64,000 bases of DNA, taken from Haliotis cracherodii (Eukaryota). Positions within the stretch are counted from its first letter, which is position 1. Every line of letters begins with the position of its first letter. Below are positions 3,001 to 27,480 of this stretch, one piece after another. The position numbers and the translations under genes were made by a program. The notes below the pieces were generated by a model. That model was not told the origin of the DNA. It saw only the letters and a program-made list of their open reading frames with translations, and did no database searches. The stretch is taken from the NCBI RefSeq assembly GCF_022045235.1, contig NW_027266275.1, positions 60,016,001 through 60,080,000 of the forward strand, written 5' to 3'.

Positions 3001-4198
3001 TAATATTAAGACGAGCCTACATGGATCTGTGATCTGTGGTTTTGCAACACAATCTACATGCATTGTTGCATAATTATGTTGTGTTGACATCCGTTAAAAC
3101 ATAATCTAGCTGCCACTACTATAGAAAGTATACACGATCAATGGTGCAGCTAGGGAGTATCTGAGTGCTTCACTAATCTCTTGTTTCCAGTATAATGAAG
3201 ACATTCTTTATTGATGAAGGCAACACCACCGTACCATTGGTACAGTGTACAACTAATTGGTAGAGCGGTTTAAAAGTATGAAAAGGACAGATTACTTGTT
3301 GAAGTAAATATATTGCGCGAGGTCATATAAGTCATGAGGGAGTCATGAAAAATACAAGTTTACATTGCATGTTACAGTCAATATCTAAAGACAGTTAATT
3401 TGTATATTTTCAAAGGTGCGTTTTATTTGAAAAGTTATATCAAGGAGGTTAGTTTGTTCAATTGAGATGAAATCCCAAAGTGACGAAAGACCTTTTCTAT
3501 TCTGGTAAAATCTAACAGCAGTATTACATGCAGTGTGATTGGGTACATGAACTGACAAAACGCCGACCTGTGATTTCAACTTGTGTCTGTGGAAGTACAC
3601 ATGTATATATGAATTAGTTATTAACCATTTGGATAGCAACTTTACATGAGACATGCCACTGTCACGTGAATGTACATTCACTGACTGCCGGTTATGCCTG
3701 ACTCCTGGTACAGTATATCTACATTACATTTTATAATAGGATTCATGTTCACATTCCGATGCAATGAGAGCCGCTTTGCTTGTGTTTGTGACGGATGCCA
3801 CCGGTGGGGCAGGATACTTTCACCTTTTCGCGAACACGTGGTATCATCACTATATGAAAGTGATTCATAAGCACATGTTCATGAATTGTACAATCGATGC
3901 ACCTATTAGCCGTGATTTCTTGTGATTATGGAAAACGTTTTGCTGTTTGTATTTGATTAGTAGGTTTTTCGATTTTATTTATTTATTTATTGATCAGTAT
4001 ATATCAGCAGGACAGCGTAATGTGGAAGAAAATCCCAAGCAATGCTTAAGCATAGTCAGAGCTATTCTGAGATGCCGACCTGGTTACATACCTCTGCACA
4101 GCGAAATATGGTGTGTTTAATGCCACACAATGTTTTTTACATATTGTATCCTGTTTCAAAAATGCACCCTCGACAGTGTTTCATTTCAGCATTTCACT

Positions 4199-4389
4199 GG
4201 GAGATAATAAGTCCTACGTAGGAGATAGTAAGTCCTACGTAGAAGATAGTAAGTCCAACGTAGGAGGTAGTAAGTCCTACGTAGGAGATACTTAGTCCTA
4301 CGTAGGAGATAGTAAGTCCTACACTGGAGATCCTAGTCCTCCGTGGAAGAATCTAAGTCCTACGTAGGAGATAATAAGTCCTACGTAGA
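4199..4389 (+). repeat. Minisatellite, 21-bp unit (ggagatagtaagtcctacgta), ~9 copies
   Basis: Direct tandem copies visible. Confidence 0.95.
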
Positions 4390-5357
4390 AGTATTTCACC
4401 GTGGCCCTACTACGCTTCTGTAAATAAAAAATATCTCAAAAATGATTTTATTTTCGTCCAAAAAAAAGATTTTGGATTTTTAAGGTAGACGGATTAACCA
4501 TGTTTTAAAATGTCAGACATAAATAAACGTGGAAAGGAAATACAGTCTGTTTACAGTCTTCCACACCTGAATTCCTATTGCTTAACGGCGATGAGTTAAA
4601 GTCGCTGAAAAAACTGTAACTCAATTTGCGGGCAATTACCACATGTCAAGCAGCTGCATATTAATTTCCTGAAAGCATGAACTAAACTGAATGGGCATTG
4701 ATTTACAGTCGATAAAAGGTGAACAGAAATAACAGTCTATTTACGTCAGGCATATGGCAAATTAATCGTTGATGAACAGAGAGATTGATCAGTCGATAAC
4801 ATGTAGCTGTGAATCCTTATAACACACCAAGAAGATTCTTAACCATAAACAATAAATATTTTCATTCATTTCATTTCAGAACATAATTCCAAAAGATTTC
4901 TTTGCCCTGTTCAAATGAATTTGGAAATAAGACTGAAGGAAAGGGAAATCAACGACATGAGAATCGACTTTCATCGGGAAAAAACAGACTCCATATCTAC
5001 ATATCATATAAACCATGCAGCGCTTATACATATACATCCAGGAATCAGTACAAGTATGCATATAGCGTTGTTGTCAGCGACTCCATCACTCTCACGCCAG
5101 TACGTCACCAAGCGGACATTTGAGGTAATACTGAGTTTTTAATTATGTGCTACGTCAAAAGCGCATCATGAATGAGGATTGGTTTAGCAGTGATTTCTCA
5201 TAATTAGAGAAAGGGATTTGGCGTTTATATTGTACTACTTAGCGTGAAACTAAACAATATTTGTGATCATAAAACAGTGTATAGACAACATGAGAATCCT
5301 TGTTCGATAATGACCCAGACGATGACGGATACCGTATTCAATCGTGTCTTGTATCTC

Positions 5358-5478
5358 TGTAGTATAGGTGATTGGCGTTCTGCCGCAACCCACCCTAGAC
5401 CATTCCCAAACCCTATAAATGCTTCTACGGAGGCCTTTTTTATGCAAATTATGCGATGCGACCCAACGATCGTCATGG
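5358..5478 (+). repeat. Left terminal inverted repeat of the Polinton-like element (~120 bp)
   Basis: Aligns by eye to the reverse complement of 16028-16150 at roughly 80% identity. Confidence 0.9.
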
Positions 5479-5489
5479 TTGTATTAAAG

Positions 5490-6075
5490 AAAGATTGCTG
5501 CAGTGGCTAAGGTATCCAAAGATGTTGCCAAGGATTGGTTAAAGAAACAAGCAATATGGTAAATATACTTACCGCCCCTCGTTTTATACTGAGGAAAAAG
5601 GTTGATATTTTCACAATGAATGAAGTTCATCAGGCTGACCTCTAGTTTTTTCCTCATGATAAGGCAAGACGCAAAACATATAAATACACTTTAACCGTAG
5701 ATGCAGCTAGTCGCTACAAAGAGGCTGAACCATTAACCTCCAAAGATTCAACAGAAGTAGCTAATACACTAAGCCGCATATATAAACACGGACCACTAAA
5801 ATGGCCCAAGTTGTTTCAAGGGGATGCTGGTCGCGAGTTTATGGGATCAGTAACTAAACTATTAACAAAGCACGATGTTGCTATCAGGCGTGGCGAAAAA
5901 GAGGCCAAACGTAGCCAAGCTATTGTTGAAAGATTTAACTGGACATTAGCAGAAAGTTTGTTTGGATATCAGTATGGGATTGGAATGAAATCAGATCGAT
6001 TAAGATCAATGGAATGGGTGACACGAGTATCAGCCCTGAATAATGAAGTTACAAGATTAATTGGGAAGAAACCAC
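5490..6075 (+). pseudogene. Retroviral-like (rve/c-integrase) DDE integrase remnant
   Basis: Translation across stops: AKVSKDVAKDWLKKQAIW*IYLP...NEVHQADL...YKYTLTVDAASRYKEAEPL...QGDAGREF...QAIVERFNWTLAE...LNNEVTRLIGKKP. The D (QADL), D (GDAG) and E (VERFN) triad is present. Truncated at both ends. Confidence 0.9.
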
Positions 6076-6229
6076 CCAGCACAGATGGTACAACTACAAC
6101 CTTGAAACTATATATCCAAACCCACAAGGAGTGTGTTCTTGAGTTTTGTATGAAAAACTATATTCAGTACTAAGTTCGGTATTTTCTATTTTCGCAGAAA
6201 TATTTCCTTTCCTTATTGGTGGTTGATTG

Positions 6230-7125
6230 TATAATAGCCTGCTTAAACTCTTAATCCATGTATAATGATATTTCCCATCTTTTTCGACCAGAAATAAATT
6301 GATTCTGGGAATATTTTCTGGGGCGGAGCTCAACCTGTATACAACAATTCCCTTGGAATGCCCGAAAACATTCACAGCTAAATCATTTTGCTTTTCCACC
6401 TTATTAATTTGTGAGATTACTGTAGGCGCATCTATACCTTCAAAGTTGAGTCCTTTGTTTTTGGGAAAGCTTGAAGGTCTATTTGCAATTTTAGAATCTG
6501 CAGGAAACAAGGAAGATTTTAATGTCCATCTTAAACAGTTATCATCATTATCTTTTACATTAATTATGGCTTTTTCACCTTATAATATGAGGGCAAATCT
6601 ATATAAGATCCACCTTTCAAAGGCATATAATTTGCTATGTCTAAATATAAAGTATCCATTCTATCCATGCCCCAACCAGAATCTCTATTCTTAAGTTCGG
6701 TATATTCAACGCTATCATCTGCATTATTTTTACTTAATGACAATTTGAGTGTCAGATAATTTAAATAGTATAAAATACCAGCTCCTCATTAATTTTCGGG
6801 ATGCGATGGGTTTAACATCATTAACATCCATGATGGAATTAATATCAATTTTCCAACTCTTAGATATCTACCAATGGCATGATCTGTGGGTACAAATCTT
6901 AACTCTGTTGCAAATGTTTGATTATCATTCAGTAATGCAATCAATTCAGCTTTTCTCATTCGAGAATAACCTCTCAGCCCATGGTTTCTTGTTTGAGCTT
7001 TCAGTTCTCTAACAGTCTGAGGTTTGTTGTATTCCAAACTGAGTTAGGTAATCAATTCTGCTTTTCTCATCCGATAATAACCGCATAAACCACATTGTTT
7101 TGCCAAAGCTTTTAGCTCTCTGGCA
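6230..7125 (-). pseudogene. N-terminal part of protein-primed B-family DNA polymerase (pPolB), preceded by two Rho-N-like helical repeats
   Basis: Motifs RDSGW, LDIANYMPLKGGSYIDLP, KAIINVKDNDDNCLRW, NFEGIDAP..QINKVEKQN..VNVFG, INLFL..HYTWIKSLSRLL resemble the Maverick pPolB N-terminal region. Upstream are RELKALAKQCGLCGYYRMRKAELI and RELKAQTRNHGLRGYSRMRKAELIALL. No catalytic polymerase motifs seen. Confidence 0.8.
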
Positions 7126-7459
7126 TAAACCATTGTGATGTAATGGTATACGCAAAATAAAACAAATATCTAAATGTTTTTTTATTCATACTAGTATGTC
7201 TAAACACTGATTCTCCGAAACCTATTCCTCCCATTGGTGCAATCCTATCATAAATAATCTGGTTTTGAATCTTGTCAGTGCCGTGAGCTTTGCAAAAACA
7301 ATAATGACCTTTGACCCCAATCCAACATACAGAACATGTGTAGTTAACATTACCATGTCTAAGTGAGTAAGAATGAATTCCACAGTCTAGGCCGACACAC
7401 CGCTCGTTACAGTTTAGGGGTTTCCCCATAAGCGTAAATCTACACTGGATTAACATCAT
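7112..7459 (-). CDS. Small Cys/His-rich ORF inside the Polinton-like element (possible Zn-binding), function unknown
   Basis: Open 115-aa frame with CNERC, CGIH, CSVC and CFCKAH clusters, lying between the pPolB remnant and the piggyBac insertion. Confidence 0.35.
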   Translation of the reverse strand: MMLIQCRFTLMGKPLNCNERCVGLDCGIHSYSLRHGNVNYTCSVCWIGVKGHYCFCKAHGTDKIQNQIIYDRIAPMGGIGFGESVFRHTSMNKKTFRYLFYFAYTITSQWFMPES

Positions 7460-7468
7460 GGCTATTAA

Positions 7469-9192
7469 CCCTTTTTCCCCGACTGCCCGATTTATCGGGC
7501 AGCATAAACCGTGTCGCAGTACCCGGCTGCCCGAAAAATCGGGCGGCTACTGTCCAAGCCCCCACACGGCTGCCTGATAAATCGGGCGGCGCGAGCGTGT
7601 TTACAAAATCGCTCTTTCTACTTCCTTTCTCGTGTGTAATCTCGTTCTAAATATGGAAACGAGATCTACACGTAATGACACGTCATTCGATTGAATTTCC
7701 CCGTCTTTTTGGCGCGAAAATGGCGGATGTCACCTGTTTTCGCGACAGGTATTTTTCTCGCTTGAATCGTAAATCAAGCGTAATGGCGGCCAACTACGAT
7801 TCGGATAGCGATCAGATGATAAACAACGACTCTATCGGAAATAATAATGTGTTTAAATTGAATAATTTAAGCGAAGGGTAGAGGGAATTTCGGGAATATT
7901 TTGGTGAAGATTTTGACGGTTTCGACGAGGTGTACCCCCCGCCAACTTTCAAGAATGGGAGTGGCAGAGGGACCACAACAGTGGAGACATGAGGGATTTT
8001 GAAGAGGCGACCGGACTCAAGAATATATATATTGACACGGTGAGTGAAGAGTCATGCTATTGATTTTTTCCAACTGTTTTACAATGATTCTGTGTTTGAA
8101 CAGATTATCAGTCCGACGAATGAGAATGCAGCCTACACGTGAACGAGCGATCACAACAACAACAAAGGTGAGTGGCATGATGTATCTGTTTCTTTTTTTT
8201 TAAATTTATTTTTCCGATCGCAATTCGCTCAATTTGAATAAAATTTATTTCTATATTCATGTTTGTTTTCTTGTTTTTTACATCTAAATTTAAATTTTAG
8301 TAACTGTAAAAATTATTTATTTATTAATTGATTTAATAAAGTACTGATTTAATTTATTAAGCAATTGTAAATAGCAGTGTATTGTAAATATGTTATCACA
8401 ACTTTTATATTTGCAGAACTTGAATTTACGATCTTTCTGTCCTTTAACAATCTTTCCCTCTTCAGATCAATCTGTGATATCTTCCCTGTGATGTCATTCT
8501 TATAGTAGCTGTGGTTCAATGTTCAGGTAATGTGATAAATTACTTTTTAAAAACTTAAATACTTAATTTTTGTTTCAAATCCTGAAAAAGAACAAAATAA
8601 ATTAAATATTTGTGTTTTTACCTGTGTTAACGAGTTTACCTGCGTTAACAAGTTTACCTGTTAAAGAGGCTGTAAGTGTATCATAAGTAATATGTGACAT
8701 CAGTATAGAAAACAAAGTCAGTACCAAGAGTTGTAAACTTGTTTATTTGTTTACAGATGTGCATGAAGAGAATTTACCTGTAACACCTGCGATTACCTGT
8801 GCCGTCCAAGATGACAAGACCACTGTGTTATGTTTACCTTGTATATGTGATTTATTTTTGTGATTTTTAATACAATTTGAGCCAAAATTCATTGTCTGTT
8901 TTCATTTTTTCAGTGCTTTCAAGTTTTATTTCACTTGTAAACACCTGTAATTAGGAAATGACAAAGGTTAGAGACAATAACAACAAAGAATATTAAAGTA
9001 TACTTAATCCTCTTTACAATGGCATATGATAAATGTATATTAAAAGCAAGTTTCTGGTAGAAAAAGTGCATCAAAAATGATGGTGTGATTTTCCAATAAT
9101 ACTGCCAGGGAGGCCAGCGTGCAGGCCTTGTCAGTGTCAGGGACTGCAGGGTTTCAAGGGACATAACTCTGGGGCAGCCAGTGATGAAAGAG
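7469..9192 (+). mobile_element. Non-autonomous piggyBac derivative nested in the Polinton-like element
   Basis: TTAA at 7465-7468 and 9193-9196. Imperfect TIRs ccctttttccccgactgccc and (rc) ctctttcatcactggctgcccc. Transposase N-terminal remnant at about 7782-8135: acidic MAANYDSDSD... then IDFFQLFYNDSVFEQIISPTNENA (PGBD-type F-LF-D-I-TN-A motif). Confidence 0.85.
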
Positions 9193-9679
9193 TTAATACA
9201 CCTCACGTATCATTTGTCTAAATGCAAATCAGCCAAGTCTCTGCTTGGGTGGTGGTGCTTTAACTATCATTTTACCTCTGCGAGCATAGCCTATAGTTAA
9301 GCCACTAACAACTGCTGAATGCTACATCCGTAACTGGAGTAGTCATGCTTTTTAACATTACATGAGGGTTTAACTCTAATTGAACCTCGTCCAAATTTTG
9401 AACTGGTGATGTTTTCTCTTCACCAGTCTTAATAAACAATACTGCTGCTATAACAACAACTCCAAGTGCATAGGGAGCCCACGTTTTAATCCATTGTGAA
9501 CTGTGTTCAGTATTTGAATTGTGTAGTAGTTTTGCCTTCTTGGCTAAAGCCCCCCTTTTACCCGCTGCTACTTTTCTGGGTTCTTAGTCACTCTCACAAC
9601 TTCCTCTTTCACTTGTTGTGTTTCCGCATTCACTTCTGTGATTTCCGCTTCCATTATTATAATGCTGGGTACACACGTT

Positions 9680-10125
9680 TAAATTGACAATACCTAGCCA
9701 TTCTTATAGTGGCAGTAAATGGTGCTAAGAACATTCCGTATCTATGGTAAAACTCACAGCTTACTGCACTTAAAGTGTGTTCAACAAATGGGTCTTTCTC
9801 GAGAGATTCTCATAGATAAAGAAGACTTTCTGATGGGATAGGAAGAAACGTACTAGCGACAGCTGTGTATAGTTGTACCAAAGCCAAACCTATTATTTTA
9901 GTCATGGTAGCTCCCAGTCTAGACTTGTAACATGCGTATATTTTTTTCTTATTTCTTCGTTATGTTATCAATTTTTTCAGTGGTATAATTTCCCCTCAAG
10001 TATTGGGATCATTTTCCACCAGCTACCAAAGCCGCAAGTCTTTCTCAATGTTGTTCTGTATATTTTTCCAATACAGGTTCTGACTCATCTTGGAGCAGTT
10101 TTTCGAGAAATTCGTTGCATTCCAT
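9680..10125 (-). pseudogene. Uncharacterised Polinton-associated ORF (degenerate)
   Basis: Read across stops and frameshifts: MECNEFLEKLL...ERLAALVAGGK*SQYL...SRLGATMTK...LEKDPFVEHTLSAVSCEFYHRYGMFLAPFTA. Resembles, from recollection and unverified, an ORF carried by invertebrate Polinton-like elements. Confidence 0.55.
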
Positions 10126-10384
10126 CTTTTTAATATAATATACTAGCTGATACTTAAGTCTAATATATTTAAATATGATATATCTAATACAGCCTGAAAT
10201 AATAAACTGTTGCAAAACGAATGAGGATTTCCAACCATATTATTACATAAATTGTTGCTAGTGTTCAAATGAACTTAAAATTGCTAAGCAGTTGCTAAAA
10301 TTTGCTGAGCAGTTGCTACATTTCCAGTTTTCTGACTTTATCTCGCTTGAGCTTGGTAGAAATAACATCATTTTGGCGTAGACA

Positions 10385-10785
10385 TTTTGCAATAAAACAG
10401 GGCAATCCATCTTGTCTGCTCTCTGAGATCTTTCAGGACAGAGTTGTATTTTTGAATAAGTACCCAAACAATATGTCGACCAAGAATGCTAAATATGAAA
10501 CGTTTCTTTCTTTTTAGTAAGTTGTTTACTCGCACTACACTAGCCTATTTTGAAAAGTATTGATTCTCCTTTGAATTTTTCGTGGCATACTCGTAAAATG
10601 TCTTGTAAATGATCGACGGGATCAACTTTTTGCACCTCGGGATCCATCATTACCCAATCTCTTGATACGTATGTTTTATTAACGTTAATAGTCGATCACA
10701 AACAAATTTGTGATATTGACTTTGTAAAATATCTAGAATAAAAGCTGTTTCTCCGTAGCCCATTTGCCCGCAGATGATAACACAG
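10385..10785 (-). pseudogene. A32/FtsK-like genome-packaging ATPase remnant
   Basis: Decayed Walker A ICGQMGYGETAFILDIL (about 10735-10780; GxxGxGKT with K>E), then NKTY..DWVMMDPEV, LAFLGRH, VWVLIQKYNSVLKDLREQTRWIALFYCK (GRH, TQ-like and arginine-finger motifs of this family). Confidence 0.75.
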
Positions 10786-11920
10786 ACATAATCACGTACA
10801 ATTATAAGTTTAATTTCCAAGCCCTTTCAGCCTTCTCCATTATCTGTATAGTTACACCCTAACTACCATTCTCTATTCTCCGCAAACTACCGTGTAGTTG
10901 GTCATCATCTGTGGTTTGCATGTCGAGCCATAGCGCATACTTCGAGGTAAGGAATTCAGCCAGCGATGCATTCCCAAGAGCCAGATCTTTTGCAACTTCT
11001 CAGCTTCGTCTTATAGAAGGGAGTTTTTTAATCTCATCCTACTGATGATATGTTCGCTTGCCTTGACTATATGGTTGATTAGACACGCCCTAGATAGTAA
11101 GTTTTACTTTTGTAATCTTTGGATGATAGAACGCCTAGGTATATCTGAAAAATGGTTCAGAAGAGTCCTCGAACAACACTAAAATACCCTCCAATGATCT
11201 AGTGAGCACGTTTAGATTGATATCCCACATGGTATCACCTTTGTTCCTGGAAATCTTTTGGTGTCGAAGAACGCAATCGTACAAAATGGCTTTACGGCTA
11301 TACTGGTTACGAACTTGTCTGGCTAATACAGGGTCTGTTATCATATCAATGGAATAGCTAGCCCCATCAGTGGTTTTGATTACTCTGTGGTAGTCATTAA
11401 AAGTCAGTTCGTATTCTAACCTATCGGCTAGGAATGCTTGATAGAAGGGCATGTGACAATCGAGTAACACAAAGTCAAGTCGAATATAGAATATTATTAT
11501 TAGCAGAATGTACACGCAGTCTCGTTGAAATATTATTATCAATACCTTGATACTGTAAGTTTTCCCATTCTTTTGCCTTTGTCCAGAGATCCATTTAACA
11601 GAAGTGTACATCGCTGTCATCAATACTCAAGACCTCATTACCGCAAATTTTAGTCGTAATTTTCTTTACAATTGCACGACCTATGTTCTGAACAAACTCC
11701 CTGTTAATGCCAGTTGAAGTCAAATTATTGTAAATAACAGTCGGTCTGTTTCTGGAACTAACACATCATGAGCGCTGAGATTGGGAATGTAAACCAGAAG
11801 TGTTTGATTTTGATCAATGTGGTGCTTGGGTTATGAGTTATAGGTACAGACTGCTTCGACTCCTAATTGATCCTGAAGTCCATGTTGTGGATTTAACTTG
11901 TGCCTGTATTGCGAAGACAT
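10785..11920 (-). pseudogene. Putative major capsid protein (double jelly-roll) remnant
   Basis: ATG at 11920. Fragments MSSQYRHKLNP, THNPS, IDQNQTLLVYIPNL, QNIGRAIVKK, LDFVLLDCHMPFYQ..RLEYELTFNDY, SLEGILVLFE, KYALWLDMQT..LHGSLRRIEN. About 1.1 kb, directly upstream of the ATPase, with many stops and frameshifts. The capsid label rests on size, position and recalled similarity. Confidence 0.65.
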
Positions 11921-11962
11921 TCTTTATATTGAAATGATGTTTGCTTATTTTTAATACAAAAA

Positions 11963-13020
11963 ATGGATGATATTAATCTAGATAAGCTAATTGACACTAC
12001 TGCAGTTGAAGGGGGACTGATGAAACCAGCTTTATGAATCTTACTTACGAACTTTTGCAATCAGCTGTTAATGATTATTATGATGTCTTAAAAGAACACA
12101 AAAAGTATGTGACTCCTATAGGCCGTGACTATTCCTAGTTAACAATAGATAGTAAAGGAATATTGCGACTGCATGGCTCTCCAGATATTGATCTTATAAA
12201 TTCTTGTACTAGGAAACCCCTAGCGTTATCTACAGTAGCTGTGCATCGTGGCAGCATCAACATTATTCATAACATGAATAAGGTCTTGTAGACTATGACA
12301 ATTCACAAGTAAAACTTTCTGCAAAGACTACTAAGGTTCTTCAGACTGTGCGAACTGAACTTTAGCAACACTCAAAGGAGGCCTTGGATGGCCTCGGAGA
12401 AATCTTGGCAACCTATGAAGAGTCTACATTACAGGCACCATCCTTAGAGTACAGTATTAGAGGGTTATGAGGTCTTGACAAACAGTGTGGGGTCACTCAT
12501 CAATAATATAGCCAAGGCACATGGACTCGACAAGCATATAGCTTATGAGAAAACAAAAACTTGGCAGATGATGAATTCAGCAGATGCAGAGTTGCTGAAA
12601 GATTGAATAACTTAGAAGAAAGATCAGCCCGCTTGGAAGCAGCTTCCAATAATAGAGAAGTTCTTCATTCACAAATCAGTCGAATTTGAGAAACTATCAA
12701 TCAAGATTTCAATGATGATACCACACTGGCCGAAAAAAATAAAATATTGTTCAGAGAACAGGGGATAACCATTACCAGTATTTTAACTACATTGGGATTT
12801 ATCAACTTTGGCTCTTGGATTAACTGGAGGTGGTGGTATAGGCGGTGGCACACCTCCTAGTGATAAGGATGGTGTAAAAGAGTGGATAAAAAGCATTTAA
12901 AGGCATTAGGAGAAGCACTAGGCAAGCTCGCTGGGATAGCCGCGTCTTCACTTCCTGGTAGCGGGTATAGTATCCTGGCTCTTGAATGTATTAGTCAAGA
13001 CTGCCATTTGGGCAGTAATT
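11963..13020 (+). pseudogene. Coiled-coil protein with hydrophobic/amphipathic C-terminus (Polinton-associated, candidate membrane-active)
   Basis: Starts MDDINLDKL. The C-terminal part reads DDTTLAE..KILFREQGITITSILTTLGFI..LTGGGGIGGGTPPSDKDGVKEWIK..LKALGEALGKLAGIAASSLPG..IVSWLLNVL. Frameshifted. Confidence 0.6.
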
Positions 13021-13059
13021 GTAGCAATTGTCCGACTATTTATCCAAATCATTAGTAAA

Positions 13060-14185
13060 CCCGTCATGACTCTTCCTACTATAAGCCCTGTATTTTCATT
13101 GATATGTTGTTGATTTTGAGTCACAACATGTGGCTGTTGCACTTCTGTTAATTACAGTAGATGACCTTGACTTGACAATTCCTGTTTTGCCTGTGTTTGG
13201 TTGCGCTACTGATACAGTGTTAAGATCTGAATTGAAACCTACAACTACAATCATATTATTATAACCTACCACTTGGCCAACGTTAAGTTGCATGTTACTC
13301 GGTGTAAACATAGTCCACTTTAGATTCGGCAACTGTAGTACATCTTGGTATCAACGGGTGATGAAACAGCATCCTCTACATTTTTGCGCATTGAAAGCTG
13401 TCCCCGCACAAATGATGTTTGAGCGTGTTTGTGACTGAGCTCGAATGAGAGCCCAAACATAAGATCTGATTGAGTCACTAATAATTTCAGCGCCGGGGTG
13501 ACTAAAACCCTCTGATTTATTTTTTAAAATGTTCCAAGCATTATCAGCATCTTGTGCTTGGTCAACCTCTTGGACGGTGAAAGCAACACCACCCTGAAAG
13601 TTCATATGATCGTCTCTCCACTCGTTACTCGAGAGAGCAAAGCTCGGAAGAAGCCGACCCCTTATCAATAAACCATCGCTGACTTCTTTAACAGAGTGTG
13701 CGACACCGTATGGAATACCGAGACAATAGTTAACTCCACACAGACGCCAATCTTTACTCGTAGAAAAACCTAATTCCCCACAATTACGTTCATATGCTCG
13801 CCGATGGTACGGATTATTTGATACATTCTATGCATGATCCTGAATTGATGGTGCACTTATTTCTGTAAGGATGCGCCTAAGCTGATAGTACACATGAAAG
13901 AAGAAAACAGTATTAGTTTGTCGCGATGGTCACTAACAGATACTCCACAGCCTGTTGTGGCACACCATATAGCAAAGTTTAGCTGGTTTTGACAGAACTG
14001 CATCGGATTGGATAACCAGTCATGTACTGTTTTAACTTTTGTTGCTGTGGACCTGTAATTTCTAAAGATATCAGGGAATTGAGTTTTAAACTGAGCACCA
14101 GAGACATCGACTAAAATTGTCGATTACTGCAATACTACTCTCGGTTTTACCAGCTCCAATATTGAAGTAATAATATAGTATCTTT
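13060..14185 (-). pseudogene. Uncharacterised Polinton-associated ORF (degenerate)
   Basis: Fragments QFPDIFRNY, WLSNPMQFCQNQLNFAIWCATTGCGVS, FFFHVYYQLRRIL, NNPYHRRAYERNC, ISDSIRSYVWALIRAQSQTRSNI, NMQLNVGQVVGYNN lie in one orientation over about 1.1 kb. Confidence 0.6.
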
Positions 14186-14196
14186 GTATATTTAAT

Positions 14197-14815
14197 ATGT
14201 ATGCTACACTCCCGGGAATAACAAATGGTCAGTCTATTCAACTGCTTCACACTATTGATAACTTGGCAGGGCAACTTGAAGTTGCTCTCTGCAATATAAC
14301 GTATTACCCACAGTGGACCAATATAAGTACTGTGAGAGATAACGATAAGTTATTACTAGACAACGACTGTCATACTATATCTGATGGGTATTACAGTGTA
14401 TGATCATCACTCAATGATGAAATTTTAAAACCTTTTTGAGCTAGTTTCACACTAAATGAGTCGAATGGGGTGCTGATTTTTTAAGCAGTGGAACACATTA
14501 TATAAACTTGACAGGGACTTAGCAAAAACACTTGGACACAACAGTGGCACCCAACACAACAGTGCATGGAGTTAAATTTCCCGATATAGTTCCCTATCAA
14601 AAGTTGTGCATCCATCTTGAACAGATTAGTACAACAAATAATATTGAATACAAAAGTCCTTCAGCTTTACTAAGAGCTAACAGAATCGTTGTCATCATTG
14701 CAGTATAAGAAGTTAAGGTGGGGTATTATTACAGAGCTAATGATTTCTGTATTAGATGTAAAACATCAACCTGTACATATGGGATATTTGAGCGTGTCAC
14801 TCCATATTATAAATA
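14197..14815 (+). pseudogene. Putative minor capsid/penton (single jelly-roll) remnant
   Basis: MYATLPG...LEVALCNITYYPQWTNI...ISDGYYS, later LCIHLEQISTTNN..ALL..QYKKL..ELMISVLD. The EVAL-I-YP-W-NI and GYY pattern and ~200-codon size resemble Polinton mCP. Confidence 0.55.
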
Positions 14816-15097
14816 ATGGTTAGTGGACTCTATGAAGCATTATACAACCTTGTTCGCGCCAATAACCATGGACTCGAAGCAAAAATCGAATGGCTACTGA
14901 ATATCGTCATTGCCCCACCATATGTGACGAGGGACAAGGCACATCATTTAACTAAAATAATGAATAGTGGGGTCATACTCGGGGCTTATATTCCCTCAAA
15001 ACGAAAGAGTGTGTTAGTCGCTCCCCTGCAAGATGGCCCAGGCTATATGTTATTGAGTCCAGCATTAAAAGATGTTAACTTAACTTTGGTTACTTAA
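14816..15097 (+). CDS. Small uncharacterised ORF inside the Polinton-like element
   Basis: Intact 93-aa ATG-started ORF directly after the penton-like gene, preceded by the AT-rich tataaataATG context seen at other element genes. Confidence 0.35.
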   Translation: MVSGLYEALYNLVRANNHGLEAKIEWLLNIVIAPPYVTRDKAHHLTKIMNSGVILGAYIPSKRKSVLVAPLQDGPGYMLLSPALKDVNLTLVT

Positions 15098-15439
15098 TTC
15101 AATGATATATTAAACAACTTTAATGCTATACCCACAAGCGCTACACTTCTTGTGGAATTCTTGTTTGGGGATGCGCCAGAACATGGCCTCGTGATATTAC
15201 CGGGGCTATCAATTAAATGGTTTAAAAGACATGAACGTCAACGTTGTAGTAGTATTTTCGGAGCGGGATACAATCTTATTACTTCAACCCTTAATGGTAT
15301 TGAAGTTAATATTATGAGTCTTTCGCTTTTTATGATATTTATACCCTATATTATAATCTAAAAAGGATGATGTATACCCCTTGACATTCTCGACCGACCA
15401 GTTAAACCCTCTTGTATAATATAATAATAAATTTACTAT

Positions 15440-15960
15440 GATTATGGGTTTATATCCAGCGCTCGATGAAGCATCTGAAAAAAGGGATACTGTTGATGAA
15501 TTTCGATTACATCAAATAAGTGAAATAAAACATCACATAGATAAGGGGCATGATTCCAGATTATTAGACTTGGATTATATAAAATGTATAGCAGAGCCTT
15601 GAATGCTCTTAGTGGTGTTGAAACTGCACTTAGCTAGTAGCAGCTAGGATGTAGCCGGTGTTGGTTTATTATCAACTATAATCGCCACGCCTATCATATA
15701 TGGCATGGAAGTGCAGTCTCTGGACTGGCAGGAGTAGCTCTTAAATTTATTTGCAAAAACAAAGCATTAAAACATGATAGTATTCGTGTCTTGGCTGAAG
15801 CAAAGTTAAATAGCATTGAGGATCATATCTCAACAACACTGGCTGATTGCAAGATATCCGAGAAGGAGTTTCGTTTAGTGTTATTAGTAAACAGGATATT
15901 CGGTCAAAATCTCATAAGACCAGTGGCATAAGTGAAGACGAGAAAAAAGTTCACAGAACA
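15440..15960 (+). pseudogene. Polinton-associated ORF with two predicted transmembrane helices (degenerate)
   Basis: YPALDE...FRLHQISEIK...ALNALSGVETAL...VAGVGLLSTIIATPIIYGMEV...GLAGVALKFIC...KHDSIRVLAEAKLNSIEDHISTTLADCKISEKEFRLVL, read across frameshifts. Confidence 0.6.
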
Positions 15961-16027
15961 AAGAAAACCAAAACCAAAAAACTGGTTGGAGATTAAGAAT
16001 AAATTGTTTCCTCGATATGCATCGTAA

Positions 16028-16150
16028 TCAATGACGATCATTTGATCGCATTGCATAATTTGCATAAACAATTACGTCTGTAGAAGCATTGATAGGGTTC
16101 GGGCCTGGTCTTGGGCGGGTTGCGGTAGAACCCTCATCACCTATACTACA
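16028..16150 (-). repeat. Right terminal inverted repeat of the Polinton-like element
   Basis: Reverse complement matches 5358-5478; ends ...cctatactaca. Confidence 0.9.
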
Positions 16151-17341
16151 ATCTTCAATCATTTCAACTGGTTCGCCCCAATGCAAATGCAACACGCCTT
16201 CGGTAGTTTGACATTTGTTACTTGCGATTAAACACTTACGACGAACATAAATATCCATATAACACCACCGAGCCTGCATTGAGCAAGGCGATTGGTGATC
16301 ACATCATGCCAACATTTCACAACTATCGTTTCCGGAAGGCATTTATTAAACCCGAGAGTGTTCATGCGTTTACACCAGCGCTACATTGCCTGTTGTAAAT
16401 ACGGTAATCGCTAGCGTTGAATTTATTGCATTTCACTTCTATGCCCGGAAGCAGAACTCCACAACAAATCATTTGGACAGAAATGACATTTGGGCAACCT
16501 TGTCTCAATCACACTTGTATCTTTTTCATATTTCTTGATAAAAAGCAACACACTACGGGTACATTGCAGCATATATCTGAAACGAAGAGTAAATCATGCT
16601 AAAAAACTTGTTTCATTAAAGTATTGCTTGAGAAAAAACTGTTAATTCTTACATGATGACATGTTTCGTTTCAGGGAGTCCTGTTATCTGATTTCATAGC
16701 TATTTTAACTGAATGGCGGTGATATAAAGCACACCTGGTTTATCTCCCTGGGTAGGCATGTCGACAGTGCAAAAACTTAAACAGATTCGTGTGTGGTTTT
16801 CGTGACTATGGATGATACCATATGGCCTGAAATTAGTTTAAGATGTACATAAAAATGCCCCACTTTCATGTTGAATATGAATGTCGAGATAGCTTCGAAA
16901 CGTATGATGTTCTTAAAACCTTATCACCAGCCGCATAATATGATATAGCAGTTCCTCGGAATAAACTCTTAGTGCAGTACTGATATGTTCTTTGTGTTTT
17001 CTTATCAAAGTAAATCCATTAGCGAAGGACACGATACGATCGGAAAGTACAAAAACGGTGTAACACTTCAAACCGTCAACATATAACAGGAAGTTGTCAA
17101 GATTATCGACAGTTGGTTTTATGACGTTTGCACTCATGTTTGCAGGCATAAATGATGAACTCCATCTGTGTAGTTACAGAAATAGACCCAGTGTTGTGTC
17201 CGAGTATCTTCACGTTGCAAAAAAAATGCAAGTTTAATCCAGATGTTTCGGTTCTCTTTGAATATGTTCTATAATTGGATTTTCAAACATGGAGTAATGA
17301 TAGTATGATTTTCTTGTTTCTAAGTGATCATCCGCTGCATT

Positions 17342-18899: not shown

Positions 18900-19450
18900 C
18901 GTCATTGTGTCTGTCATACGAGATATCAGCCGAGAATGAACAGAATGCCACATCTTGATTACAACATAACTATTAATTTATAAACCCTTTCCATATTCAC
19001 AAGAAATTGATTCAGTATATAGCATGAGCATATGTTTATGAATCACTATGAACTATTGGTGATGACAAGTGTGCGTGTGCGCGCCCTGCCCCATCGGTGG
19101 AGCAAGTCACAAACACATGCAAAAGCAAGTCAATTTTTCACCTAAAACAACATGAGAACACATGGTCAAAAGAAGGCAAAATAAGAAATTGCACACGTCT
19201 ACCAGAAAACGGTTTGAAAGTTTTACTGAGGTCTTCAATGTAACCTTGATCAAACAACTCGTATAGCGCGCTCTTTGAAATCCTCGTAGAAAGAGCATGC
19301 TTGAATGCACCTCAAAAGTTGTGAAATGTAGATACCAAAGGCTGGAGCTACTGGAATATTGCTCGACATGAAGGGAAAGTAGACCACTGGAAAGTTGAAG
19401 ACATCCTTCTGGCAATGCAGTGTTGTGAATATTTTTTGTCACTCTGAATG
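18900..19450 (-). mobile_element. 3' fragment of a Penelope-like retroelement (RT C-terminus plus 3' UTR)
   Basis: Minus strand QKDVFNFPVVYFPFMSSNIPVAPAFGIYISQLLRCIQACSFYEDFKER matches the DKRDDFNF..FPF..SNIP..AYG.YISQLIR motif of PLE RTs. It is followed by a UTR segment repeated elsewhere in the window. Confidence 0.8.
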
Positions 19451-22422: not shown

Positions 22423-25415
22423 CCTATTTCTGGAGCCACATATAGTTGTAGTTATACTTGTATACTGTACACTCACATATCCTCGGTTCATATGAGATAT
22501 GATCCAGAGGCTATTTCATCTGTCAGCTGCAAATAGATGGGACATTTTGAAACACATTTCTGTTATCTAAATGTCACATGATTCCGATGCACCTAACGAT
22601 TTGAGGTTGAAAAGAGCTACGGCAAGACATGTTTGTTCATAAATAATAATAATATAACTGTTATTACGCAAATGACTAGTTTATAATAAACGTATTATTG
22701 TTAAGTTTCAAGCCTAATATTAATTGATCATGTATCAGTATTTGATTGATGAAATCGTGTATTTGTAATCACCATAAAATATTCTCTTGTTTAGATTCAC
22801 GTTTAGTTCCAATAAAAGCGCCGAAAACATTTCCATAATCATAAGAAATCTCCACTAGTCTATTGTACGAGTGTATTATACGAATACGTATTATACTATA
22901 TTATAAGCACGTTTATATGAATCACTACCAAATAATGATGATACCAGGTATTCTGCCCCACCGATGACACCCGTTGATCCCGCCTTACGTTGATACCGAC
23001 ACAGATCTAGCACTATTATAATTGAGACCTCATAGGGATAGACTGTCATTAATGAGTAGCTCGCGATAAGGGTCATTCCCAGCACAAACCGACATACATT
23101 GGGTTTTTTCGAGGTCTCCATATTTACAATGATTGAACCCTTTATACCCTGAAGCCGTTTGTCTCAGACCATTGTGAAAATAACATCCATATGATACTCA
23201 AATACTCGGAGCCAACGCTAAGCATCAATGTCTGGACCTGTCAGTATTCAGTCTGTTATTATGGTATAAAGTGCACTCATGTCTTTCACATTCCAGTCAA
23301 AGGAAGCAGAATGGTCAATGCAAAGTCGGCGGCGTTAGTCTTCTGCTGCAATTCCAAATGCCAGTGAAATAAGACCTTGTGGACTCTAGTAGCTAATTAT
23401 CGTTTTTGAAAAATGGGTCACATAAAGGTGCGGATACCAGTTGGCCTCATGGAAATCGCTGTGTAATCATGTAACGTAAAGTTATCACTCGGTTAATCGT
23501 ACATCCTGCGAGTGTCGACTTCGAGAATGACAAGATGTGTTATCCAGTTTAAGTTGAACTTGTTAAGACTGAACAGCATAATGGGATTGCGATGCCAAAA
23601 GGTTTGTAGCCTATAGTGATTCATGAATGGGCCTTCACAACGAAAACTGTAAATGCCACATATAAAATATAACTGTAAAACACTTGCAAAAAAAGAATAT
23701 TTTCAAATAGCGAAATTCTCTCGATCTGGATTTCAAGAAGGATTATAAAACATATTGTGCATGTGTATGTGTGGAACGTTTATGTTTGTTTATCTCGTTT
23801 TGTTGTGGTTTACATAAACAAAGGCACATTCAAATTATCAGTATATTTGCATAATTGAATCGGCATCCGCGGATCCTCCACAACTCTTAAGGGATCCCAA
23901 AACGAATATCCGTATTTCCCATGACTGCTACTTTCCGGTCTATGCTCTTTCCACTTTGTCCACACCATTTTTGAGCCCTGGAACAATGTCTACAGGGAGA
24001 CGACGATTCAGACACTCATGAAACATGAATAGATATACGGCAATGTATATGATAAACGAGAAATGATTTTTATTTCATTTGGAAAATGTAAGATGTAATT
24101 CTCGTCTAGTCCATTTTTGTTGAATACAGCAATGTTTGAAACAGAACATATCTATCATTGGTTCCACGCTTTTTATAATGGGTTTGAAGCTTAAGTTTGA
24201 GAACAGACACGTACAAAGCAAGCATACATTAGGGCGAAGAGGACAATTTAACCCACAAATAATCCAGAAATGAATGTTTATCGGATTGTCCTGGTAAAAC
24301 GTAGAGGCTGATGATGACACTTTACATTAGACCTACGTTGATAGTCGCCAAGATAGGCCTTATTCACTTCGTTTCGGCAAAACCTACTTTCCCATTTCTT
24401 CAACCTGCTCTGGTGTTTCTGTATACACTAGCTGCATGCAGTTTCCTGTGCCTTGTATACTTTATCAGCTCGAGATACCGCGCGTGTAACCTTAGATGAT
24501 ACACAGACTTTTCTTATCCAGTCGCTGAGTTCCCAGGAACGTAACTCGAGGGTTAAAATGCGTTGAAATAATGAGCTTACTCTGACACTCTGACACTTCA
24601 AGAATGCAACCTAACACAAGAAAATTTAGCATAAACGTGAACAGAGATTCCATTTGCTTCTGACAAAGTTTATACGTAGATTGATATGTATATAGTAGAG
24701 GCAACAGTTCTTATGAGTACGAGGATGGTGAGAGAACCTTGGTATTGATGCTTGATCAGAGCCCATTGGTAATTTAAACAAGGAGTTATTTCAATTCACC
24801 AAAGGGAATAATACTTCTTTGTAGAGATCATGACGTTGTTCCATTATACGATACCGACAGACCAACTCCATTGTATTATGCGGAAGGTCGACCCCCTGCC
24901 CGCGTCATACTAGAAGACGTTAAAAGATGGTACTTGATGTTACCCTGGCTGCCTCTCGCTTTTTACCATTCACCGAGACAGAATAAACCGGCTGAGTGGG
25001 GAATTATCCATATTAAACTGAGGCGTGCGGCGTGCTATTTCAGTAGGCTAGGAATATATAACTGTACAAGTACAACAGTCACAAATACGTGCATTGACCG
25101 AGACGTGATACCAAAGTTCCCATCACTACATACTGGCAGTCCATTCAAAACACAACCATTCATCAATATATGGGATGCATCAATATGGTCACGTTACATC
25201 GAATTTCATTTATTCTATTTCCTTACTCTTCATACTGTTACAATTATATATTTACATGTACACAAGGATATTGATCAAGATTAAGTTCCGTTATTTCACC
25301 TCAACCATTTTTTCTCAGATAATTCCATGAAGTTTATATATATATGCTTAGCCAGAACCTATGCTTGACACACAAACGTTTACTGGCACCCCAGTGTTAT
25401 TGAATTATCACTCAC

Positions 25416-27209: not shown

Positions 27210-27480
27210 GCTGTATCATACGCCATATCAGCCGAGTATGAAAGGACGTCACATTACATCTTGATAATAACAAACAGACTTTTTACAAGCAACAAAACAC
27301 TTTCCATAATCACAAGAAATCACGATCCCAACTATATCAAGAGCAATTGTTTATGAATAACTATCAGATAGTGATGATACCAGCTGTTTGGGAAAAGGCG
27401 ACCGTATCCTGCCCCACCGGCTGCATTCATCACAAACACGTGAAAAGGCAGGTCAAGTCTTCACCTGAACAACCCACAAA
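27210..27480 (-). mobile_element. Penelope-like element 3' UTR fragment
   Basis: Colinear with about 18915-19160 (atatcagccgag..catcttgat..tttccata..cacaagaaat..cctgccccacc..cacaaacac). Shorter copies at about 2095-2210, 3770-3950, 22905-22990, 58370-58540, 59005-59060 and 61120-61190. Confidence 0.7.

Follow-up and report, generated by a model that had tools for sequence, protein, structure and literature searches.

The 64-kb stretch of Haliotis cracherodii DNA analysed here (the window, to which all unprefixed positions refer) contains a provirus at positions 5358–16150, bounded by terminal inverted repeats (TIRs) and belonging to a large family in the same genome. In our reading this family is a mosaic, in which a Polinton-type replication module is joined to an adenain-less capsid module like that of polinton-like viruses (PLVs), of the Polinton-3_NV lineage. 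Its young copies carry two or three penton genes in tandem, with an excess of amino acid changes confined to one inserted domain. The explanation that we favour, and hold to be probable, is an integrating virus, which would insert with a 5-bp stagger, replicate by protein priming, package its DNA by an A32-type ATPase into a protease-independent jelly-roll capsid and vary its vertex domain under selection by receptors or immunity. That the elements integrate, which genes they carry and how selection acts on them can be read from the copies themselves; the roles in replication, packaging and at the vertex would follow from the known functions of these protein families. The window copy is dead and partly deleted, an otherwise ordinary decayed insertion.

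Tandem penton genes and their variable domain

Tandem pentons were found in all ten young siblings of the window copy (nine with two genes, one with three) and in a further copy nested within an older one. A single penton is present in the window copy, in one older sibling and in all 56 of the outside loci described below that have a penton open reading frame (ORF) of at least 150 aa. Among 20 intact natural penton ORFs, the N- and C-terminal parts are 91–94% identical; residues 44–133 have a mean identity of 50%, fall into 14 types and are 37–60% identical between paralogues of one element. One type is the first gene of the array in two elements and the second gene in another, which suggests shuffling.

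The ratio of nonsynonymous to synonymous differences (pN/pS, uncorrected pairwise counts) was 1.36 for residues 44–133 over all pairs, and 1.48 for the gap-free columns of that region with one sequence per type (column bootstrap 1.14–2.20); it exceeded 1 in 200 of 200 disjoint pairings. Elsewhere the ratio was 0.26 in the penton base, 0.18 in the ATPase, 0.28 in the major capsid protein (MCP), 0.25 in o270 and 0.55 in m410. The MCP, the ATPase and the penton base are under purifying selection. In a structural model of the penton, residues 39–134, taken alone, match an adenovirus-derived ADDobody chain (Z 5.3, root-mean-square deviation (rmsd) 3.2, 95 aligned), which corresponds to the outer crown of the adenovirus penton base. 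No description of tandem hypervariable Polinton pentons was found in the open-access literature.

In the proposed cycle, the integrase would make a 5-bp staggered cut, the protein-primed DNA polymerase of family B (pPolB) would copy the linear genome, once excised, beginning at its AGTAGT ends, and the A32 ATPase would fill an icosahedral capsid. The penton insertion domain would face outward at the vertices and contact a receptor, a fibre or a host immune factor, so that duplicated and shuffled pentons would widen the set of vertex variants. More tentatively, cc400, m410, o201, o226 and o141, in all of which hydrophobic segments were found, may serve an inner membrane or membrane penetration or exit, as in protease-less double jelly-roll viruses.

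The strongest competitor, which we consider unlikely though not negligible, is an intragenomic self-synthesising transposon whose capsid genes are passengers or make intracellular particles, and whose penton diversity reflects relaxed constraint and gene conversion among the tandem copies. Such a transposon would fit the hundreds of germline ends, the perfect duplications at the short 470-bp and 4.6-kb derivatives, the broken genes in ten of ten siblings and the penton type that changes array position, but relaxed constraint predicts a pN/pS near 1 rather than 1.48 in the insertion against 0.18–0.28 in the base, MCP and ATPase, and all 17 long outside relatives keep one order of the module.

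Capsid proteins and the conserved protein m410

For the penton model, a natural ORF of a sibling, with 78 homologues, was folded (predicted local distance difference test score, pLDDT, 93.8). Foldseek returned the mavirus penton (E 6.9e-8) and then Sputnik and adenovirus chains, and VIA alignment gave Z 11.8 to PBCV-1 (rmsd 3.0, 123 aligned), 11.4 to mavirus (8.1, 217) and 11.2 to Sputnik (7.7, 200). Judged by this model, the gene at 14197–14820 is a single jelly-roll penton. Like the pentons of mavirus, Sputnik and adenovirus, it consists of one jelly roll into which an outer domain is inserted, but it has 225 aa compared with about 300–500 aa in those proteins, at an identity of 8–12%.

Profiles and alignment identify the gene at 10787–11920 as a double jelly-roll MCP, with 2,136 relatives at E ≤ 0.001. 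An earlier note, made from the letters of the window alone, had located both capsid genes almost to the base and expected jelly-roll similarity in each, which the penton fold and the Capsid_N and double-jelly-roll cluster matches of the MCP bear out. Sequence searches of the PDB with the penton profile, the MCP, the MCP profile and pPolB returned nothing meaningful.

Protein m410 has 843 homologues, one of them named, from the bivalve Mactra. It had no match in Pfam, PHROGs or NCBIfam and no usable match in the Atlas, and its model (pLDDT 87.5) had no Foldseek match at E ≤ 0.001 in the PDB or BFVD. The best VIA alignment (Z 4.6) was limited to the C-terminal helix, with the core barely tested; since it reached this last helix only, a new fold is possible. 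A protein of this kind was not found described in the open-access literature, although the protein files of PMC8502044 may hold names for it, cc400 and o201. Two alleles of m410 (L074:3756–4985 and L086:3733–4968) differ mainly at residues ~145–210, with nearly identical flanks.

Outside relatives in metagenomes

A metagenome scan with m410, of whose 305 relatives the best 80 were taken, and one contig of a metagenome-assembled genome (MAG) gave 81 outside loci; short contigs are numerous among them, so that each absence is of limited weight. Every one of the 17 loci that measure 7 kb or more keeps the order penton, m410 (opposite strand), cc400, MCP, and the ATPase and then o226 follow the MCP in all 16 long loci that reach that far; o201, o79, o141 and the integrase are present where the contig permits. 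The rve integrase was found in 12 of the 81 loci. As replicase, four loci have pPolB, matching DNA_pol_B_2 over the cut-off in four of four ORFs scanned, and three have a superfamily 1 (SF1) helicase. In these three (L215, L228 and L229) the same structural module and integrase occur with a 900–1140-aa SF1 helicase protein in place of pPolB. No earlier description of this fixed gene order with either pPolB or an SF1 helicase was found in the open-access literature.

The slot after the penton is variable, with a match to a phage tail-fibre model in one outside locus and a weak C1q match in another. Because its slot holds fibre-like genes in these two relatives, o270, which has four homologues, may be a fibre. 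Scans of IMG/VR with the MCP, m410 and ATPase yielded no relative, and among prokaryote genomes one contig, in a MAG, carried one. Homologues P0016, P0030, P0418 and L263 bear the labels of bacterial MAGs (Thiodiazotropha, Saprospiraceae) and are probably host DNA carried into the bins.

A further reading, improbable in our estimate and not exclusive of the others, is a helper-dependent virophage-like element similar to Gezel/PgVV, activated by a large DNA virus of the host and maybe protective, with penton variation that tracks the helper instead of a host receptor. The closest described MCP groups with that of PgVV, which reportedly replicates only alongside a giant virus, and the exchange of pPolB (four outside loci) for an SF1 helicase (three) is PLV-like; against this, pPolB and integrase are encoded by the element itself, and no helper virus was seen, no search having been aimed at one.

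Absence of adenain and relationship to known lineages

Adenain (C5) was not found by Pfam among 16 family ORFs scanned, with a C5 model that does match another family in the same genome. Four adenain-like ORFs of that genome had no tblastn match at E ≤ 1 in the window or in 22 sibling loci, and a hidden Markov model (HMM) of the four matched none of the 81 outside loci. Likewise, none of 180 unlabelled ORFs (at least 130 aa) of the 17 long outside loci had a peptidase match in Pfam. Three of the four adenain-like ORFs stand beside another MCP type: in this second Polinton family (L091, L093, L094), adenain directly follows a different MCP. Between the adenain-bearing elements and 14 proteins of the present family there was no tblastn match at E ≤ 0.01, and the best MCP blastp value was E 0.89.

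The MCP of the family resembles that of Polinton-3_NV (Fig. S3 in PMC4028283) over its whole length in a comparison by eye; across the final 68 residues, 20 are identical without gaps. The earlier note had called the element adintovirus-like. In its strict sense this term is not supported, because adenain was not found in the window, in 11 sibling elements or in 81 outside relatives, and because the MCP is of Polinton-3_NV type.

Polinton-3_NV of Nematostella vectensis is tabulated with an MCP and an ATPase, without penton or protease, at 16.6 kb, and its MCP is grouped with the PgVV element (PMC4028283). The present family agrees with it in MCP type (by eye), ATPase, lack of protease and size (14–15 kb), and differs in its mollusc host and in a fold-supported penton, present in two or three tandem copies. 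PLVs are described without a protease and nearly all without an rve integrase (PMC4642659). With PLVs or Aquintoviricetes such as PgVV-Gezel and TSV (PMC4642659), the family shares an MCP, penton and ATPase without maturation protease; exchange of pPolB and SF1 helicase, as well as two pentons in some protist Trimcap B PLVs, are also reported (bioRxiv 10.64898/2026.06.19.733378). In contrast to PLVs, it has an rve integrase, which is rare among them, lives in an animal and is present in the germline in hundreds of copies; no methyltransferase was detected among 14 family proteins. Adintoviruses, or group 1–2 Maverick-Polintons, have the same rve integrase, pPolB, FtsK/A32 ATPase, hexon, penton and TIRs and also predicted membrane-active accessory proteins, but that set was collected by its adenain gene, which was not found in this family, and its MCP type differs (PMC8502044).

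Cnidarian MCPs are given as the sole metazoan ones outside the main Maverick-Polinton cluster (PMC10120064), and ATPases of Octocorallia, Hydrozoa and Bivalvia as closest to Aquintoviruses (bioRxiv 10.64898/2026.06.19.733378). With these reports and that of Polinton-3_NV, the outline of the lineage is already known from cnidarians, and bivalve ATPases give hints of it.

One alternative is a canonical Polinton of group 1 or 2 (an adintovirus) with a lost or hidden adenain. It would have the same rve integrase, pPolB and A32 ATPase, the MCP and penton, the AGTAGT ends and a length of ~15 kb, and some canonical Polintons are tabulated without a protease (PMC4028283), but we regard it as very unlikely given 11 sibling elements and 81 outside loci without adenain, adenain-bearing elements of the same genome that have the other MCP type and no tblastn match at E ≤ 0.01, and an MCP that resembles Polinton-3_NV, cnidarian MCPs lying outside the main cluster (PMC10120064).

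The family in the genome

The terminal 20-mer of the family had 588 exact matches in the genome and its reversed control none; the TIR motif is therefore not a chance occurrence. These 588 AGTAGT ends are of the AG...CT type. In genome searches with m410 and the penton, the best 150 of 1,309 and of 2,047 candidates, respectively, were scored. Two sets of ten siblings were studied, one chosen by TIR similarity and one by a long open m410 frame. Siblings recovered through the TIR, the route that the earlier note had proposed, were mostly decayed or interrupted, and one contained a younger 13.3-kb copy within an older copy of the same family (L043:169–L044:9656). The young siblings chosen by m410 measure 13.9–15.4 kb, and their TIRs are 92–100% identical (nine with both ends, plus the nested copy). 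Every core gene is open in some sibling, and one sibling has a full 1213-codon pPolB frame with ExoII, ExoIII, Pol A, Pol B and Pol C motifs, as the earlier note had expected of an intact relative. Its term "fossil" suits the window copy and not the family, with its hundreds of ends and its young copies.

Among 35 paired ends, the target-site duplication (TSD) was perfect at 5 bp in 31 (one of which also fits 8 bp within a repeat); two matched at 4 of 5, one had 6 bp and one had none. The usual Polinton TSD is 6 bp, from which the family differs, although some sources allow 5–6 bp. A 5-bp TSD for this family was not found described in the open-access literature, Repbase and the bioRxiv supplements being outside its scope.

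Derivatives with both ends and perfect 5-bp duplications, of 470 bp (L163/L164, C1:45341065–45341534) and 4.6 kb (L122/L123), are probably non-autonomous forms. On the 89-Mb contig C1, 52 of 60 listed family termini lie within a 7.3-Mb mid-contig block (38.7–46.0 Mb), which is perhaps pericentromeric. Four termini on the same strand at ~2-kb spacing (C3:30305921–30311954) represent one end amplified in tandem.

The mollusc host named in the earlier note agrees with 16 haemocyanin beta-sandwich units and with egg-lysin exons, and 0 of 14 control genomes matched in either search. Four sequencing runs with four organism labels covered all 30 bins of the module with differing TIR flanks, a record of presence and not of transcription. 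We found no description of the family from a gastropod in the open-access literature; preprint supplements may already include its lineage from molluscs.

The provirus copy in the window

The core TIR arms of the window copy, located by inverted-repeat search, are 5358–5431 and 16077–16150; at their full extent of ~119 bp they agree at 100 of 119 aligned bases (84%). With the 588-hit terminal motif and a 5-bp duplication that matches at four positions (Table 1), this establishes the TIR-bounded provirus that the earlier note had outlined. A 6-bp TSD and a shifted AG...CT boundary were rejected for this copy because the 5-bp reading alone fits. Both termini read TGTAGT (5358–5363 and 16145–16150), a form with 8 matches in the genome compared with 588 for the A-form, which suggests a variant progenitor or end-to-end conversion.

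Genes were reconstructed by aligning natural sibling ORFs to the window across stops and frameshifts. Where the earlier note had perceived about ten tightly packed pseudogenes, 13 recognisable genes or fragments were found, in the order and orientation of Table 1. Twelve regions are 56–84% identical to natural sibling ORFs and contain 29 stops and 41 frameshifts across 2,708 aligned codons. Pfam searches of 21 window fragments gave rve and Rho_N as the sole useful matches.

Table 1. Features of the provirus copy and its immediate flanks in the window.
Feature	Position	Strand	Basis
Left TSD, ATCTC	5353–5357	none	sequence and 5-bp rule of the family
Left TIR, begins TGTAGT (family form AGTAGT)	5358–5477	+	repeat and sibling alignment
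rve integrase pseudogene	5488–6074	+	Pfam rve, E 7e-5 (window ORF), 3.9e-9 (sibling)
Internal-deletion junction, ~2.6 kb gone	6075–6099	none	blastn to L073 and L077 jumps from ~4600 to ~7200
pPolB N-terminal third with Rho_N-like repeat, no catalytic domain	6100–7157	−	Pfam, sibling alignment, motif search
Small Cys-rich (zinc-finger-like) ORF, ~92 aa in siblings	7203–7444	−	alignment; no Pfam match over cut-off
Nested 1.7-kb TTAA-flanked non-autonomous transposon (element 7469–9192)	7465–9196	+	repeat copies in genome
o79, small ORF, truncated	9199–9355	−	sibling alignment
Small Lys-rich ORF with hydrophobic segment	9353–9580	−	68% to 121-aa ORF of L031, E 5e-27
o226, conserved gene	9608–10240	−	sibling alignment; homologue in 18 of 81 outside loci
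Pseudogene of an A32-type packaging ATPase with a decayed Walker A	10325–10814	−	window 71% to sibling
Predicted double jelly-roll MCP pseudogene, Polinton-3_NV type	10787–11920	−	tblastn to sibling, E 2e-115
cc400, coiled coil and three hydrophobic segments	12016–13071	+	alignment; homologue in 52 of 81 outside loci
m410, conserved 410-aa protein, C-terminal hydrophobic helix	13035–14182	−	alignment; upstream bound approximate
Penton, single jelly roll with insertion domain, one copy	14197–14820	+	tblastn to sibling, E 2e-43
o270, in variable slot	14843–15378	+	sibling alignment
o201, long hydrophobic stretch	15444–15993	+	alignment; homologue in 37 of 81 outside loci
Right TIR	16031–16150	−	repeat and sibling alignment
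Right TSD, ATCTT, matches left at 4/5	16151–16155	none	sequence and family rule

The Polinton gene set assumed in the earlier note holds for the integrase, the A32 ATPase, the MCP and the penton; the catalytic two-thirds of pPolB is deleted in the window. The integrase keeps residues 22–222 of 319, with two stops and one frameshift, and its C-terminal third is deleted. The ~2.6-kb deletion took the 3' ends of two convergent genes, integrase and pPolB, leaving just residues ~5–417 of the 1213-codon pPolB frame; the whole exonuclease-polymerase part is gone, and a motif search of the window found no ExoII, Pol A, Pol B or Pol C. Possible OTU-like Cys and His motifs matched in pPolB at 6543 and 6267; the sibling matched the His motif only, and Pfam returned no OTU domain in the family pPolB.

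The sibling ATPase matches Pox_A32 over the Pfam cut-off (E 4e-10), and the sibling o79 protein has a weak holin match (E 2e-4). The hydrophobic stretch of o201 is probably two membrane helices. No GasderminX-, PLA2X- or SLATT-type match was obtained for cc400 or o201 in Pfam or NCBIfam. The small sibling genes o141 and o85 have no match in the window; this, the deletion at 6075–6099 and the TTAA element at 7469–9192 were absent from the earlier note.

The TTAA element, presumably piggyBac-like to judge from its TTAA and CCC end, has at least 39 other copies in the genome at 95–96% over the 5' end, with a full-length match of 93–94% in 11 of 11 loci. It is a separate, later insertion in the window copy. 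In two of the 11 loci (L096, L103) it also adjoins sequence of the same provirus family.

At the nucleotide level the window copy is 65–87% identical to the young siblings. Its TIRs (84% alike), this lower identity and a nested transposon that has itself diverged indicate that it is older than they are. The old, capsid-encoding, integrating double-stranded DNA element in a mollusc that the earlier note had put forward is supported. The copy would derive from an older single-penton sub-lineage and would then have lost its pPolB core and gained the TTAA transposon, in either order, and decayed.

Outside the provirus, the window has a ~21-bp unit, palindromic in its core, that is repeated in tandem (4200–4390) and several copies of a dispersed repeat in both orientations (2112–2172, 3774–3956, 19023–19123, 22808–22953 and 27284–27447).

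Assessment and significance

Several points weigh against an integrating virus with the capsid and lineage described here. The family is known from sequence, any virion, free DNA or transcript of it being hypothetical. One or more core genes (integrase, pPolB, MCP) are broken in all ten young siblings, and young copies are over-represented because a long open frame of m410 was the ground for selecting them. The pN/pS values are pairwise counts on recombining paralogues. For the MCP, Capsid_N matched in 13 of 55 aligned family members, all below the Pfam cut-off; the Atlas matches of 0.97–0.98, including double-jelly-roll and Capsid_N clusters, come with a recognition value (1829) under the reliability mark; and searches of the PDB with the MCP and its profile gave 0 matches. 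The full sibling pPolB has no match to DNA_pol_B_2, which pPolB fragments do match (E 7e-6 and 2e-4), and none in the PDB. The link to Polinton-3_NV was drawn by eye, and the placement of the MCP and ATPase is indirect. Finally, a very divergent protease may be present among the unnamed ORFs, or as an OTU-like protease domain in pPolB.

Virions of animal Polintons have not been seen so far, according to a preprint (bioRxiv 10.64898/2026.06.19.733378). The two or three diversifying vertex genes of the young copies hint at a real infectious virus. A bolder version of the integrating-virus reading, which we offer tentatively and consider rather less likely to hold than to fail, is a PLV-type virus without protease that infected animals until recently, with a membrane virion and hundreds of copies in the mollusc germline, in which tandem shuffled pentons would generate receptor range or immune escape and the membrane-anchored m410, the most conserved accessory protein, would have a fold not in the PDB.

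The family extends the protease-less PLV-like animal lineage from cnidarians (and bivalve ATPases) to an egg-lysin-bearing host, and adds a penton to a lineage whose first tabulation had none. It also defines a fixed structural module, which includes the widespread m410, with its 843 homologues and unmatched fold. An excess of amino acid changes confined to the penton insertion, within a conserved capsid module, is the trace expected of an extracellular phase facing receptors or immunity, and the penton insertion domain is a concrete place to look for such a viral phase.

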